DNA from: an uncultured Ignavibacteriales bacterium
GTDB taxonomy: Bacteria > Zixibacteria > MSB-5A5 > GN15 > FEB-12
Reading direction: 5' to 3'
NCBI GenBank assembly: GCA_964627305.1
Contig: CAZVHP010000003.1
Coordinates: 64,927-128,926 of the forward strand
Length of the DNA: 64,000 nucleotides
Shown: piece after piece, positions 27,544 to 51,480 of the stretch
How positions within the stretch are numbered: position 1 is the first letter of the stretch
Layout: the number at the start of each line of letters is the position of its first letter
Notes under the pieces: model-generated
Told to the model about the DNA's origin: nothing
Database searches by the model: none
The model's input: the letters and a program-made list of their open reading frames with translations, nothing else
Made by a program: the position numbers and the translations under genes

Positions 27544-29958
27544 ATGCGGCTATTATCGCTCAAAATCCGCAATTTCCGGGTGTTGAAGACCTTTGCATTC
27601 AGCTTTGGTGAGCAGGTGATCGGTATTGTCGGTCCGAACGGGGCGGGGAAGTCCTCGATCATTGAGGCTATGGCGTGGGTCTTGTGGGGTAATGCGGTGG
27701 CCCGGACGGGCAAGGATGAGATCCGTTCGGTGTTCGCCGGGCCGGATGAGGCCTGTGAGGTTGAGCTGGGGCTGGCGATGCGAGGGGAGGAATATACGAT
27801 ACGTCGTAGTATATCAGCCAAGGGGCAGACCTCGGCTGACATGCGCTGCGGGCAGGCACTGGTGGCCACGGGGGTGCGGGAGACGCAGGAGGCGATTGGC
27901 CGGCTGATCGGGCTGGATTCACGAGGATTTCTGTCCTCGGTGCTGGCGCGTCAGCAGGAGTTGAACGCGCTCTCGGACGTGACGGCCTCGGCGCGCCGGG
28001 AGAAGCTGGCGACCATGCTGGGTGTGGATCGTCTGGATCGGGCCATTTCGCGGCTGAAAGAGGACAATCGGGAGCTTCAGGGCCGGACCGAGCAACTGGC
28101 GGCCATTGTTGGGGGGCGGGAGCAGGTTGAGAAAGACCGGGCGGACCTTGGGCGACAACTCGTCGAGGCCGAGAAGCAGGCGGCGGAGATTCATCAGCAA
28201 CTGGCCGGACAGCGGGAACGCGTGAAGCAGGCAGCCGGGGAACTGGAAAGCTGGCAGGAGAAAAGGGGTCAGTTTGAGGTGTGGACGGTTGAACTTGGGG
28301 GCCGTCGCGAGCAGTTGGCTCAGACGATCCAGAGTATCGAGCGGCTCTCGGAGCGGCTTGGGCGGCTGGCCGCGGCGGCCGAGCGGCTGCCGGAGATGCA
28401 CAGGGAGCTGGCGGCTTATCCGGAGGTTCTCAAGGAACTCAAGCGGCTGGATGAGGCCCTGGCGAACAAGAAGCTGGTCGAGGGGCTGAAAGGGCAGTTG
28501 GCGGACGGCAAGAGAGATATCCTTGCCGCCGAGCAGGAGGCCGGGAAGCTGGCGCAGGAGCGGAATTCGCTGCAGACGCAGTTGTCGGGACTGCCGGCCG
28601 ATCTGGCCGATCAGGTGGCGGTTGTGTCGGCTGAGCGGGAGCGGGCGGGGGAGAAATACTACGCCGAAAAGGCCCGGTGCGATCGTTTGGCGGCCGATCT
28701 GGCGAAGATCACGTCACAACTGCAGCACATGGACCAGTGGGGGCCGGATTCTGTCTGCGACCGCTGCCACCGCCGGCTGGGGGACGATCTGGTGGAGGTG
28801 AGAGGGCATTTCGAGCGGGAGAAGACTGAGATTGCCGGCAGGCTCGAGGTGGCTCGATTGGAGCTTCAGAAGGTGACTGAGTCCGGGACGAGGCTCAAGG
28901 AGCGACGGGACCTGTTGAAGGCGCAGCAGGAGAGCTATGTTAAGTGGAGTAGTCGGTTGCAGGTTATCGAGAGTTCGCTGGGGCAGCAGGAGCAGACCCG
29001 CAAGCGACTGGCAGAGCAGCAGGCGCGGCTTCTGGCCGAGCTGGAGAGGGTGGGCGAAGTGGTGTTCGATATGCCAACATACCAGAAAGTACTGACCGCC
29101 AAGGAGCGGCTGGACGGACTGCAGCGGGAAGCGGACCGTCTGTCAGGAGAGCTGAAGGACCGTCCGGTAGTTGCTGAGGATCTTGAAAAAGCGCGCAAAC
29201 AACAGGAGAATCTGCAAGCAGACATTGCCTCTTTGGGCGGTCGGATTGCCGGGCTGGGGTTTTCGATGGCGGCTTTTGAGGCGGCTCGAGGCAAACTGGA
29301 GACAGAGCAGAGACAGGCCGATCAGCTCAACGGCGAGGCGCAGTCGAGAAAGGACCTGGTGACGCGGCTGACGAGTGACCTGGGCGCCCTGAACCGTAAA
29401 ATGGCGGAAATCGAACTTCTTGCTGAGGATCTGGCGGTGCTTCGGACGGACCGGTACTACGGTGAGAAGCTGGTGAATCTGCTGGCCCAGTTTCGGCAGT
29501 TTCTTGTGTTACGGATTCGGCCGATGCTGGCGGAACTGGCCGGGGACCTTCTGGCGCAGATGACTGATGGTCGGTACACGATGGTGGAACTGGACGAGCA
29601 GTATGAGTTGCGGGTATTCGATGCCGGCGAGTACTACGGGGTGAGCCGTTTTTCGGGAGGGGAGAAGGACCTGGCCAACTTGTGCCTTCGGCTGGCGATT
29701 TCGCAGGCGCTGACGGAGTCGGCGGGGTTGCCGGGGTCGTTCGTCATTCTGGATGAGGTTTTCGGGAGCCAGGATGCCAGCCGGAAGGATTTGATTCTGC
29801 AGGCACTGGCCAGTCTGAAGGGGCGGTTTCCGCAGATCATTCTGGTGACACATATCGAGGATATCAAAGACCGGGTCGAGGAGTTGATTGAGGTAGTGCC
29901 GACCGGTCAGGGTTGGTCGGAGGTGAGGGTAAATGGTCAAGCGATACCGGTTGCCTGA
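27544..29958 (+). CDS. SbcC/Rad50-like SMC-type ATPase with central zinc hook
   Basis: Walker A GPNGAGKSS, ABC signature FSGGEKD and Walker B FVILDEVF. Long coiled-coil with CxxC (CDRC, aa 405-408 of 804, nt 28756-28767) at the exact midpoint. Confidence 0.85.
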   Translation: MRLLSLKIRNFRVLKTFAFSFGEQVIGIVGPNGAGKSSIIEAMAWVLWGNAVARTGKDEIRSVFAGPDEACEVELGLAMRGEEYTIRRSISAKGQTSADMRCGQALVATGVRETQEAIGRLIGLDSRGFLSSVLARQQELNALSDVTASARREKLATMLGVDRLDRAISRLKEDNRELQGRTEQLAAIVGGREQVEKDRADLGRQLVEAEKQAAEIHQQLAGQRERVKQAAGELESWQEKRGQFEVWTVELGGRREQLAQTIQSIERLSERLGRLAAAAERLPEMHRELAAYPEVLKELKRLDEALANKKLVEGLKGQLADGKRDILAAEQEAGKLAQERNSLQTQLSGLPADLADQVAVVSAERERAGEKYYAEKARCDRLAADLAKITSQLQHMDQWGPDSVCDRCHRRLGDDLVEVRGHFEREKTEIAGRLEVARLELQKVTESGTRLKERRDLLKAQQESYVKWSSRLQVIESSLGQQEQTRKRLAEQQARLLAELERVGEVVFDMPTYQKVLTAKERLDGLQREADRLSGELKDRPVVAEDLEKARKQQENLQADIASLGGRIAGLGFSMAAFEAARGKLETEQRQADQLNGEAQSRKDLVTRLTSDLGALNRKMAEIELLAEDLAVLRTDRYYGEKLVNLLAQFRQFLVLRIRPMLAELAGDLLAQMTDGRYTMVELDEQYELRVFDAGEYYGVSRFSGGEKDLANLCLRLAISQALTESAGLPGSFVILDEVFGSQDASRKDLILQALASLKGRFPQIILVTHIEDIKDRVEELIEVVPTGQGWSEVRVNGQAIPVA

Positions 29959-30607
29959 GGCATCCCGGCGGCGGCGCCGGTGGGGCTGGCTGGCCGTGCC
30001 ACTGGTGGTGCTCCTGATTCTGGCCTTCCGACTGGCGGAGGATGTCGGCCACGAAGCAACTGTTACGCAGCGGTTTACGGTGCTCCGCATACTTGACGGG
30101 GACACCTTCGAGCTGGTTGGTGGGGACCGGGTGCGGATGCTTTCGATCGACACGCCGGAGCGGGGCGAGCCTTTGTATGACTCGGCGCGGGCAGTGCTGG
30201 AGCGGCTGGTTATGGGGCAGCCGGTGGGTTTGGAGTATGCCGGTCCGCGACGGGATCGCTATGGCCGGCTGCTGGCTTATGTGTATGTGGACACGGTGCT
30301 GGTCAATGCCACGCTGGTGCGGCAGGGGCTGGCGTATGTGTATCTGTTCGATGATACTGAAATGTCGCGGCCGGAGGTGGGGCGGCTTCTGGAGGCCCAG
30401 AAGGCGGCGGTGTTCGAGCGGGGCGGGCTGCATGGCCTGGCGCGGGTGGGGGAGAGCTACTATGTGGCGGTCAGGGGGGCGTTTCGGTTTCATCGGCCGG
30501 GCTGTTCGAACATATCGAGGACGCCGCCGGAGCGTTTGTTGCGGTTTGAGACTAGGGAGGAGGCGCTGCTTCAGGGGTTGTCGCCGGCACGGAATTGCCG
30601 GCCGTAG
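29933..30607 (+). CDS. membrane-anchored thermonuclease (SNase) family protein with C-terminal Cys-containing tail
   Basis: N-terminal anchor RRRRRWGWLAVPLVVLLILAF. SNase motifs LDGDTFEL and RMLSIDTPE. C-terminal FHRPGC...ARNC. GGAGGTGAGGG RBS. Overlaps the upstream gene by 26 nt. Confidence 0.85.
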   Translation: MVKRYRLPEASRRRRRWGWLAVPLVVLLILAFRLAEDVGHEATVTQRFTVLRILDGDTFELVGGDRVRMLSIDTPERGEPLYDSARAVLERLVMGQPVGLEYAGPRRDRYGRLLAYVYVDTVLVNATLVRQGLAYVYLFDDTEMSRPEVGRLLEAQKAAVFERGGLHGLARVGESYYVAVRGAFRFHRPGCSNISRTPPERLLRFETREEALLQGLSPARNCRP

Positions 30608-30609
30608 TG

Positions 30610-30795
30610 GCGGTGTCGAGACCTCGTTTTGCGATCCCTTTGGGGCAGGCGGGACTCCTGCCGGCCGCGGGTTGGGGGGATGTCGAAACCTCGCTTCGCG
30701 ACCCGCCTTTGGCGGGCAGGGGTTTCGACCTACGTCAGAGGTGACGAAAGGGCAGGGGTTTCGACCTACCTCTCATGAATGATGGGGCACACGGG
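30610..30795. repeat. composite REP/MITE-like palindromic repeat cluster (locus A)
   Basis: Contains GTGTCGA(G/A)ACCTCG(T/C)TT(T/C)GCGA...GGGGCAGGCGGGACTCCTGCC and two GGGCAGGGGTTTCGACCTAC units. GTCGAAACC and GGTTTCGAC are reverse complements. Flanked by the identical 20-mer CGGAATTGCCGGCCGTAGTG at 30590-30609 and 30796-30815. Confidence 0.8.
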
Positions 30796-30876
30796 CGGAA
30801 TTGCCGGCCGTAGTGTAGATGGGCGGGTTTCGGCTGTTGTGTGCGGGGGCTGATTGTGTATACTACTCAGACTATT

Positions 30877-31530
30877 ATGTATAGTGTGTCATCATACGGG
30901 AACTGGCGGTCGGCGGCGGCTGTGCTGCTGGTGGCGCTTTTTGTCTGCTCGGCGGCGTTCGGCGGGGGGCGGGATCTGACCACTCCACCGGCTGACCCCG
31001 ACGAGGCCTATCGGGTACAGATCTGGATTCCGGCAAAGATGAGTACGCGCTGCCGGTTGGCGGTGGAGATTCGCGACGGGCGCAATCAGGTGGTGCGGAA
31101 TCTGGTGGAGGAGTTCATCGGGGCCGGATACTACAACTACTACTGGGATAAGAAGGATGATTCCGGGCACTGGGTGGAGCCGGGGCGTTACCTGGCGGTG
31201 GCGGATATCTGCGGAGAGCGCCGTTACCGGGACCTCCACGCGGAATATGTGGCCGGTGAACGGGAGCTTCGCACCGCCAGCGCGGGCGGCGAGCGGCCGG
31301 ACACGCTGGTGTATGAGGTGATGGCGGATTCGATCCCGGTGGTGATCAATGTGCACGACCTGGGTGGGCAACTGATGGCCGGCAGGGTGGTGGACACGGC
31401 GCTGGCGGCCGGGAGTTACCGGTTGACGTTGCAGCCGGACTGGGTGGTGCCGAAGGTGGAGGCGCGCTATGAACTGCGGCTGGAGGTTCTGGAGTATGTG
31501 CACTATGACACAATCTGGTATCGGCCATAA
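30877..31530 (+). CDS. secreted protein with FlgD-Ig-like beta-sandwich repeats
   Basis: ATG 30877, while the track starts at GTG 30841. Signal AAAVLLVALFVCSAAFG. Pattern VEIRDGRNQVVRNLVEEFIGAGYYNYYWDKKDDSGHWVEPGRY is typical of FlgD_ig-like domains. Confidence 0.6.
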   Translation: MYSVSSYGNWRSAAAVLLVALFVCSAAFGGGRDLTTPPADPDEAYRVQIWIPAKMSTRCRLAVEIRDGRNQVVRNLVEEFIGAGYYNYYWDKKDDSGHWVEPGRYLAVADICGERRYRDLHAEYVAGERELRTASAGGERPDTLVYEVMADSIPVVINVHDLGGQLMAGRVVDTALAAGSYRLTLQPDWVVPKVEARYELRLEVLEYVHYDTIWYRP

Positions 31531-32023: not shown

Positions 32024-32190
32024 GGGGGGTGTCGGAAGGGCGGGGGTTTCGACCTACGTCTCATGAATGATGGGGTACCGGGCAGGCCGGGAGGCCTGCC
32101 GCGCACGAGATATCGTATTCACAAGGCAGAGGGGTGTCGAAACCTCGCTTTGCGATCCCTTTGGGGCAGGCGGGGACCTGCCGCGTACGA
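32024..32190. repeat. composite REP/MITE-like palindromic repeat cluster (locus B)
   Basis: GGGCGGGGGTTTCGACCTACGTCTCATGAATGATGGGG (32038-32075), the hairpin GGCAGGCCGGGAGGCCTGCC, and GTGTCGAAACCTCGCTTTGCGATCCCTTTGGGGCAGGCGGGGACCTGCC. Confidence 0.8.
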
Positions 32191-32237
32191 GAATAGAGCT
32201 TTCCGGAGTCTGGTCGGAGATGGATGGGGGAGAGGGC

Positions 32238-38287: not shown

Positions 38288-38475
38288 TCGCGGTGTCGAA
38301 ACCGCACGGGTTTCGACCTACCTCAGAGGTGACTGGGTGGATTACGGCAGGGGCAGGCGGGACGCCTGCCGCCCACGGGTTCGAGGGATGTCGAAACCTC
38401 GCTTCGCGACCCCTTCGGGGCAGGGGTTTCGACCTACATTCATCGGGGCAGGGGTTTCGACCTACCTGTTTGGGG
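38288..38475. repeat. composite REP/MITE-like palindromic repeat cluster (locus C)
   Basis: GTGTCGAAACC-gcac-GGGTTTCGACCTAC is a perfect hairpin, alongside the hairpin GGCAGGCGGGACGCCTGCC. Also ATGTCGAAACCTCGCTTCGCGACCCCTTCGGGGCAGGGGTTTCGACCTAC, followed by one more GGGGCAGGGGTTTCGACCTAC unit. Confidence 0.8.
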
Positions 38476-38550: not shown

Positions 38551-38615
38551 TATAGATTCGAAGTACAGATTCGAAGTATAGATTCGAGGCGTAGATTCGA
38601 GATATGGGTTCGAGC
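38551..38615. repeat. 13-bp tandem repeat, 5 copies
   Basis: tatagattcgaag / tacagattcgaag / tatagattcgagg / cgtagattcgaga / tatgggttcgagc, read head to tail. Confidence 0.8.
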
Positions 38616-51320: not shown

Positions 51321-51375
51321 AGGGGGGGGAAGTTCGTTTGCGGGAGGACGATCGGCCTGCCGCGCAGCGTGGTAA

Positions 51376-51480
51376 AGGGGCAGGCAGGACGCCTGCCGAG
51401 TAGGGGAAGGCAACCCACCCCGCCGGAGGCGGGATGGGGCACCCCATGCTGGGGCAGGCCGGGAGGCCTGCCGCCCACAG
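51376..51480. repeat. REP-like GC hairpin cluster (locus D)
   Basis: GGCAGGCAGGACGCCTGCC, CCCCGCCGGAGGCGGG and GGCAGGCCGGGAGGCCTGCC. The last is identical to the hairpin at 32081-32100. Confidence 0.7.

Follow-up and report, generated by a model that had tools for sequence, protein, structure and literature searches.

The window analysed here, the whole stretch of 64,000 nucleotides, carries on its plus strand an SNase-family (thermonuclease) gene (29933-30607; Pfam PF00565) whose homologues come nearly all from Zixibacteria, which places the source in that phylum, and whose product ends in SPARNCRP. The C-terminal motif C-R-N-C-(R/K)-P, followed directly by the stop codon, is kept in SNase orthologues down to 50% identity, with those of Zixibacteria ending in SPCRNC(R/K)P; in the clade of the window, an Ala replaces the first Cys of the motif (SPARNCRP versus SPCRNCRP). 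The start of the SNase ORF overlaps the upstream gene for an SbcC/SMC-like ATPase (27544-29958) by 26 nt (29933-29958), and this overlap is kept in every relative examined. A native hairpin at the gene end (30583-30602, plus strand; GCCGGCA-CGGAAT-TGCCGGC, with a 7-bp stem) was read from the sequence and its fold. The downstream neighbour, a FlgD_ig-like gene on the same strand (30841-31530, start codon uncertain), keeps its place behind the SNase gene even in relatives that share only 50% amino-acid identity, and in these relatives it begins within about 17-58 bp of the SNase stop codon. No tRNA or tmRNA gene that could serve as an integration target was found in the window.

The original prediction had described an exact 20-bp direct duplication that flanks a cluster of palindromic repeats and includes the stop codon of the nuclease gene, and our analyses confirmed it: CGGAATTGCCGGCCGTAGTG, 20 nt long, is present at 30590-30609 and again, without a mismatch, at 30796-30815, both on the plus strand. 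The proximal copy begins in the loop of the native hairpin and reads CGG AAT TGC CGG CCG TAG followed by TG, encoding R-N-C-R-P-stop in frame with the SNase-family ORF; since the C-terminal motif is conserved, this copy is the native, working gene end. The distal one is a non-coding relic. The interval between them (30610-30795, 186 bp) is made up of repeat modules only. No further match to CGGAATTGCCGGCCGTAGTG was found in the 64-kb window with up to three mismatches allowed (0.01 expected; two or more matches in 0 of 100 shuffles), and a repeat search of the whole window returned this pair as the sole exact direct repeat of at least 20 nt outside the REP modules. The accompanying claim that GGCAC precedes both copies is true only loosely, in that at the first copy GGCAC (30586-30590) overlaps the first base of the 20-mer, and at the second it lies 5 nt upstream (30786-30790), inside the tail module of the cluster, GATGGGGCAC, which recurs near 51433-51442 and, as GGGGTAC, in cluster B. 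A dif/Xer-type site (11-6-11 arms) and a type-2 palindromic unit were each compared by eye with the 20-25-mer, with no convincing similarity in either case.

The inserted stretch, cluster A (30610-30795, plus strand), is a BIME-like mosaic of GTAG-type REP hairpins. Its first unit (30613-30662) combines the left arm GTGTCGAGACC with two small hairpins and a hairpin of type 2, GGCAGGC-GGGA-CTCCTGCC. Further along lie a complete Y-shaped REP (30679-30733), a linker (30734-30749), a lone right arm, GGGCAGGGGTTTCGACCTAC (30750-30769), and the tail, CTCTCATGAATGATGGGGCAC (30770-30790), after which comes ACGGG. Its outer arms are inverted (GTCGAGACC ... GGTTTCGAC). All of its modules recur in the other clusters of the window, namely cluster B (32028-32191, 164 bp, plus strand), cluster C (38290-38465, plus strand) and cluster D (51342-51478, plus strand), the last consisting of type-2 palindromic units, GGGCAGGCCGGGAGGCCTGCCGCCCAC, preceded by a GATGGGGCAC module. 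Together the four clusters hold about 10 units in 64 kb, all of them intergenic, and the clusters are frequent break points in contigs of the species. The main unit, of about 50 nt, runs from (A/G)TGTCGAAACC through two small inner hairpins to CAGGGGTTTCGAC-CTAC, the second unit type is GGGCAGGC-GGGA-GCCTGCC-GCGCAC, and the fixed linkers of the mosaic are CTCAGAGGTGAC and CTCTCATGAATGATGGGGCAC. Read on the minus strand, all full units, those of the window as well as those at 29 loci from other genomes, have the form GTAG-GTCGAAACC...GGTTTCGAC, with CTAC at the plus-strand 3' end; a GTAG tetranucleotide thus adjoins an imperfect palindrome, which is the signature of GTAG-type REPs (PMC2817692, PMC3733652). 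Within clusters A, B and C every unit points the same way (CTAC on the plus strand), each unit being itself palindromic, and the alternating, inverted neighbours of the BIME/REPIN architecture were not found in these three clusters.

We found the 20-nt right arm, without a mismatch, in 29 loci (L021-L049) of GTDB species representatives. The outer stem does not vary among these loci, and the sequence of the first inner hairpin differs between genomes with its pairing kept. Folded one by one, 17 of 21 distinct units adopt the Y shape; the covariation shown by these per-sequence folds carries no formal count, the MAFFT/RNAalifold consensus having misaligned the variable inner hairpin. A known structured RNA family was ruled out, as Rfam gave no match in the window at the gathering threshold and none at E<=10 in 30560-30860. 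The same 9-bp outer arms of the Y-shaped GTAG-REP of about 50 nt (30679-30733 and 38387-38437 in the window) are present in MAGs that bear the labels Zixibacteria, Ignavibacteriales, 'Acidoferrum' or unclassified bacteria. As a REP family is usually confined to one genus, the taxonomic breadth of this one is unusual, with mis-binning as a possible source. In addition, cluster C is followed at a short distance by about five tandem copies of a 13-nt unit, TAYAGATTCGARG (38551-38615).

A candidate enzyme for these repeats is encoded in sister lineages. A protein of 178 aa in L057 and L060 matches the NCBIfam model for REP-associated tyrosine transposases (RAYT; equivalog NF047646) with 97.4 bits against a cutoff of 80, and scores 35 bits, below the cutoff of 55, with the NCBIfam IS200 model; it also has a Pfam Y1_Tnp match, its best PDB match is 4er8, the E. 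coli TnpA-REP, and more than 2400 homologues were found at E<=1e-10. The RAYT locus is the third gene 3' of the SNase gene, about 1.5 kb downstream of the cluster at the SNase end, and the RAYT gene (1483-2019 in L060) is flanked by REPs between a gene for a protein of 180/184 aa and rluB (L060:1346-2519, L057:5066-5669). The gene order in L060 is FlgD_ig-like gene, 180-aa gene, REP, RAYT, many REPs, rluB, scpB and scpA. The window has the same order, but with the 164-bp cluster B in place of RAYT; cluster B probably represents a transposase-less remnant of the RAYT locus, RAYT having been lost in the lineage of the window with its repeats kept, so that cluster A would lie about 1.5 kb from a RAYT locus that lost its transposase. 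By tblastn no RAYT was found in the window or in the 29 loci from other genomes, and a crude HUH-motif screen of 99 ORFs beside REPs gave no candidate. A third type of palindromic unit, CCCACC-TGAAA-GGTGGG with its relatives, is abundant beside RAYT in L060 (2019-2519), and a related sequence is present in cluster D of the window (51400-51445).

These features place the locus among REP/BIME-RAYT systems, such as the 'REPtron' of E. coli and the REPINs of Pseudomonas, with a single unusual long target duplication. It shares with them the GTAG beside an imperfect palindrome, a location outside genes and for the most part directly behind stop codons, mosaic clusters that combine linkers with units of several types, and one RAYT gene with repeats on both sides (here in the sisters). 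Moreover, the loss of RAYT with kept repeats in the lineage of the window resembles the situation in E. coli clades without tnpA-REP, some of which have lost this RAYT gene with the flanking repeats retained (PMC2817692, PMC3733652, PMC3333891). It differs from them in that its units are Y-shaped (three-way) structures of about 50 nt rather than simple hairpins and are same-oriented rather than alternating, in that its host belongs to the Zixibacteria, with the same arms in MAGs labelled Ignavibacteriales and others, and in its target duplication of 20-25 bp, which is outside known REP/IS200-type behaviour. To our knowledge, REP/BIME-RAYT elements have not previously been described in Zixibacteria.

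We found the copy-insert-copy structure in at least seven independent assemblies from four lineages, at 94-100% nucleotide identity. The close relatives were taken from cluster members and exact-protein look-ups; a metagenome scan with the SNase protein returned distant relatives only. The structure is identical in L003 and L050-L054, which include JGI and ENA/MEGAHIT assemblies of several samples, and L003 has only 4 differences from the window in 12092 positions. Filled sites are also present in L055/L056, L057 and L060, with flanking genes 94-96.5% identical in nucleotide sequence to those of the window. The contigs L001, L003, L054 and L056 end in or beside clusters, and an odd third copy of the 20-mer stands at one contig end (L053), as might be expected if the duplication were produced by a de Bruijn-graph loop through the repeat, 20 nt being k-1 for k = 21; however, the same structure recurs across assemblies from different samples and assemblers, and diverged lineages have their own substitutions inside the insert and the distal copy, leaving next to no chance that the duplication is an assembly artefact.

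The two copies have fared differently in these lineages. The proximal copy stays coding in all of them. The distal copy is exact in L060 and the window; in L055 and L057 it has a single substitution, G to A (CCGTAG to CCATAG), and there the match between the copies extends to 25 bp, GGCGCGGAATTGCCGGCC[G/A]TAGTGG. Its left edge also differs by lineage, being ACGGG, TGGG or GGCG (TGGG/ACGGG in L060 and the window). The distal copy thus appears to drift at about the neutral rate, with the proximal copy under coding constraint. Because the distal copy has lineage-specific differences and filled sites are found in four lineages, the duplication is older than the split of these lineages. Originally it measured at least 20 bp and perhaps 25 bp, the exact length (20 versus 25 bp) being uncertain because the distal copy has a variable left edge.

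Orthologous SNase loci without the insert were expected to carry the 20-mer only once, and such loci were indeed found. A single copy of the gene end, with no REP, is present in L059 (77% nucleotide identity in the SNase gene), L058/L001 (81%) and L002 (71%). In L059, the best-aligned of these, the stop codon is followed directly by TGGGCGGGG...GTTGT...CGGGGGC...GTATAC...ATG, and this spacer can be aligned with the one behind the second copy in the window (30816-30877, plus strand), which is therefore orthologous to it and native; the predicted empty junction of the window is CGGAATTGCCGGCCGTAGTG joined to TAGATGGGCGGG. In orthologues at 50% identity, only 17-45 bp separate the stop codon from the start of the next gene. 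In the other genomes, too, CGGAATTGCCGGCCGTAGTG was found at SNase loci only. We regard the single-copy loci as true empty sites, on the strength of which the duplication can be read as an insertion footprint, as originally predicted. The empty-site lineages are only 71-81% identical to the window, and a precise loss of the insert by recombination between the copies would be possible, with parsimony arguing against it. The native spacer of the window holds a remnant resembling a REP right arm, GGGCGGGTTTCGGC, at 30821-30834, and stretches of the same form, GGGCGGG(G)TT(T)CG(G/A), lie in L058 (3680-3695) and L059 (1250-1262). Their presence in both filled and empty loci may reflect an older REP remnant that stood at the target before the insertion.

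Every locus seen has either one copy without REP or two copies with a REP cluster, and no intermediate was found. This pattern bears on a history of two events, in which slippage would first have duplicated the gene end in tandem and a REP cluster would later have entered the junction of the copies. Such slippage would be favoured by the hairpin-forming palindromes at the gene end, and short local duplications are frequent in the clusters, for example those of the right arm at 30714/30750 and 38418/38446 (spacings of 36 and 28 nt), with REP arms forming arrays in L029. A two-step history is nevertheless improbable, as it needs an insertion exactly at the junction of the copies and as its intermediate, two copies without REP, was seen in no lineage.

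The palindromic element had also been predicted to be, or to have been, mobile, and this holds in so far as it consists of GTAG-type REPs with a RAYT in sister lineages and a 147-nt composite is present at no fewer than two loci. Specifically, positions 38290-38437 of cluster C are 93% identical (138/148) to the 147-nt core of the insert at the L055 SNase site, indicating that the composite was copied to at least two loci, the copy in cluster C being without duplication. A regular duplication of the target by the element was not borne out. We surveyed the 80-nt flanks of 47 clusters for their longest common substring against mismatched flank pairs, and recovered the window locus (20 nt) and L055 (19 nt, exact), all other clusters except one, in L036, falling within the chance distribution. 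Similar duplications, which the prediction had led us to expect around other copies of the element, were thus found neither at clusters B, C and D of the window nor at about 45 clusters of the family elsewhere, apart from one ambiguous 15-mer. The alternative suggestion, that the element carries a copy of its target, gained nothing in support, the 20-mer being absent from all non-SNase places examined. The duplication therefore appears, from these sequence comparisons, to be a one-off insertion scar and not a regular feature of the repeat family. The ambiguous case lies in L036 (3560-3720; Zixibacteria MAG JAYRFH01), where a 15-nt direct repeat, AGATCACGACGCTTT, brackets a hairpin and a REP unit and an inverted near-copy of it lies inside the bracketed stretch; the 15-mer may belong to a different palindromic repeat and be no insertion scar.

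The survey also bears on whether the 20-mer is a true target-site duplication, made by an enzyme with staggered cuts of about 20-25 bp acting on a MITE-like non-autonomous element. The geometry of copy, insert and copy, together with the empty site, is exactly what such an enzyme would leave, and the cluster has inverted outer arms, GTCGAGACC ... GGTTTCGAC. A model for it is IS1630, an element of the IS30 family in Mycoplasma fermentans, which is said to choose palindromic, terminator-like sequences at gene ends as its targets. Its target duplications of 19-26 bp, as cited in PMC2853133, match the length seen here. IS1630 differs from the present case in being an autonomous DDE element, bounded by terminal inverted repeats, and in leaving such a duplication wherever it inserts. 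At the window locus no DDE transposase was found in the Pfam lists within at least 3 kb of the cluster A locus, and the other copies, including the 93% identical composite at 38290-38437, clusters B and D and about 45 others, have no duplication. In addition, the right end of the insert, its tail module, does not look like a defined terminus, since elsewhere a type-2 unit comes after it, and the only transposase linked to the family is of the Y1/HUH type, which makes no duplication. With neither a duplication of characteristic length at most copies nor the defined termini of a transposon or MITE, this explanation is unlikely.

Direct repeats of 15-50 bp that rebuild the 3' end of a gene are typical of integrase-mediated insertion. 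Such repeats (class b in PMC2853133) would be expected here if a site-specific integrative element had restored the 3' end of the SNase gene between att sites and had later been deleted, with REPs colonising the gap. However, no integrase was found within at least 3 kb of the cluster A locus, neither cargo nor any other non-REP remnant lies between the copies, the 186 bp consisting of REP modules from edge to edge, and no recurrent use of the core was seen, the 20-mer being confined to SNase loci. With no tRNA at hand and several extra steps needed, an att origin is very unlikely. The duplication of a repeat through off-target spacer integration of the Cas1 type was likewise considered and rejected, the insert being about five times the length of a spacer and made of REP modules.

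The data are best explained by a single insertion with long target duplication of the REP cluster, probably arising from repair or replicative synthesis in one irregular event, and we hold this explanation with moderate confidence. 'Insertion with long target duplication' is reportedly a term of Nobusato et al. (2000). It is a recognised class of insertions whose repeats often span the stop codon of a gene (Furuta et al. 2010, PMC2853133). The present case agrees with it in having no mobility gene in the insert, a repeat of unfixed length that is longer than usual, an overlap with the stop codon and an empty site in a relative: the insert is non-coding, the sites of L059, L058 and L002 are empty, and those of the window, L055, L057 and L060 are filled. 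It departs from the described cases, which are kilobase-sized restriction-modification cassettes with repeats of 26 to more than 100 bp, in being a 186-bp non-coding REP cluster with repeats of 20-25 bp, shorter than the >30 bp by which the set of Furuta et al. was defined (PMC2853133).

In this event, a BIME-like GTAG-REP composite of about 150-190 bp was inserted in the common ancestor of a small Zixibacteria clade (the lineage of the window with L055/56, L057 and L060). It entered directly behind the SNase stop codon, ahead of the native spacer that leads to the next gene, and a target of at least 20 and possibly 25 bp, made up of the last five codons, TAG and another 2-3 bases, was duplicated. 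Inside the cluster, the sequence has been remodelled since. The inserted DNA would belong to the repeat family served by the RAYT encoded 1.5 kb downstream in the sisters, with the event probably taking place near the RAYT locus. Two routes are conceivable. The incoming DNA could have been joined to the two target strands 20-25 nt apart, with subsequent fill-in, or the replication fork could have switched template to a donor cluster and then returned, with re-annealing at the hairpin-forming gene end 20-25 nt upstream. We found no donor locus that matches the insert exactly, which keeps a template switch hypothetical; microhomologies at the junctions are at most 2-4 nt and ambiguous, and the junctions have no recognisable cleavage motif. 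Participation of RAYT is suggested by family membership and proximity, and the mechanism is one that we infer from the end product of a single event.

The scar does not fit the chemistry expected of the family, in which single strands are handled without a scar. Elements of the IS200/IS605 type and their palindrome-associated miniature derivatives resemble the present one in having a related Y1/HUH transposase (Pfam Y1_Tnp) and in recognising hairpins, but they insert 3' of a short target motif without duplication (PMC3333891), as do, by their lack of flanking repeats, the other clusters here, cluster A being the exception. Enzymes of this type leave no target repeats, and the mechanism by which REPs spread is still unknown (PMC3333891, PMC8266576). 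Given HUH/Y1 single-strand chemistry without duplication, and other members of the family without duplication, the duplication is most likely a by-product of repair or replication. A bolder possibility, to which we give a small but appreciable chance, is that REP/BIME composites of this RAYT family occasionally enter double-stranded targets, with the strands cut or primed about 20-25 nt apart at a hairpin-forming gene end. If so, the scar would be a direct record of a step in REP spreading, and this step could be reconstituted with what the locus provides, namely an enzyme (the L060 RAYT of 178 aa), a substrate and a target.

As a lone event, the scar by itself leaves the picture of REP biology unchanged, but at least one insertion here misfits the scar-free single-strand model. 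Clean comparisons of filled and empty sites are rare for REP clusters, and this locus offers exact junctions, a dated clade, a second copy of the composite and the sequence of a cognate transposase. In practical terms, these repeats break metagenome assemblies, a REP cluster can sit directly on a stop codon without harm to the gene, and REP clusters mark sites of rearrangement, including the loss of the transposase itself.

The clusters have been remodelled since the insertion. Compared with L055:3590-3765, the interior of cluster A (30613-30769) has undergone two replacements or insertion/deletions, with flanks that are 94-100% identical, and it is also remodelled relative to L057 and L060. 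The first unit of cluster A (30612-30653) shares 95% identity with a cluster B unit (32133-32174) that lies 1.5 kb away, which suggests gene conversion between clusters. The right arm, of 20-21 nt, is locally duplicated with spacers of 7-16 nt (30714-30733/30750-30769 and 38418-38437/38446-38465), and a short tandem array of it, repeating about every 29 nt, is present in L029; these local duplications point to recurrent amplification on a small scale within clusters. The junction after the 180/184-aa gene differs between the window, L055 and L057/L060, and, taken together with a join at the contig end of L053, this variation indicates that the clusters are sites of recurrent rearrangement. In L053 (5040-5306; the same species, ENA ERZ27252297), the left part of cluster B is followed by a REP unit, the tail of cluster A, a third copy of the 20-mer and TAGATGGG of the native spacer, the kind of junction that recombination between REP units would create in forming a circle or tandem duplication of the 1.3-kb two-gene segment, although a graph artefact is also possible there.
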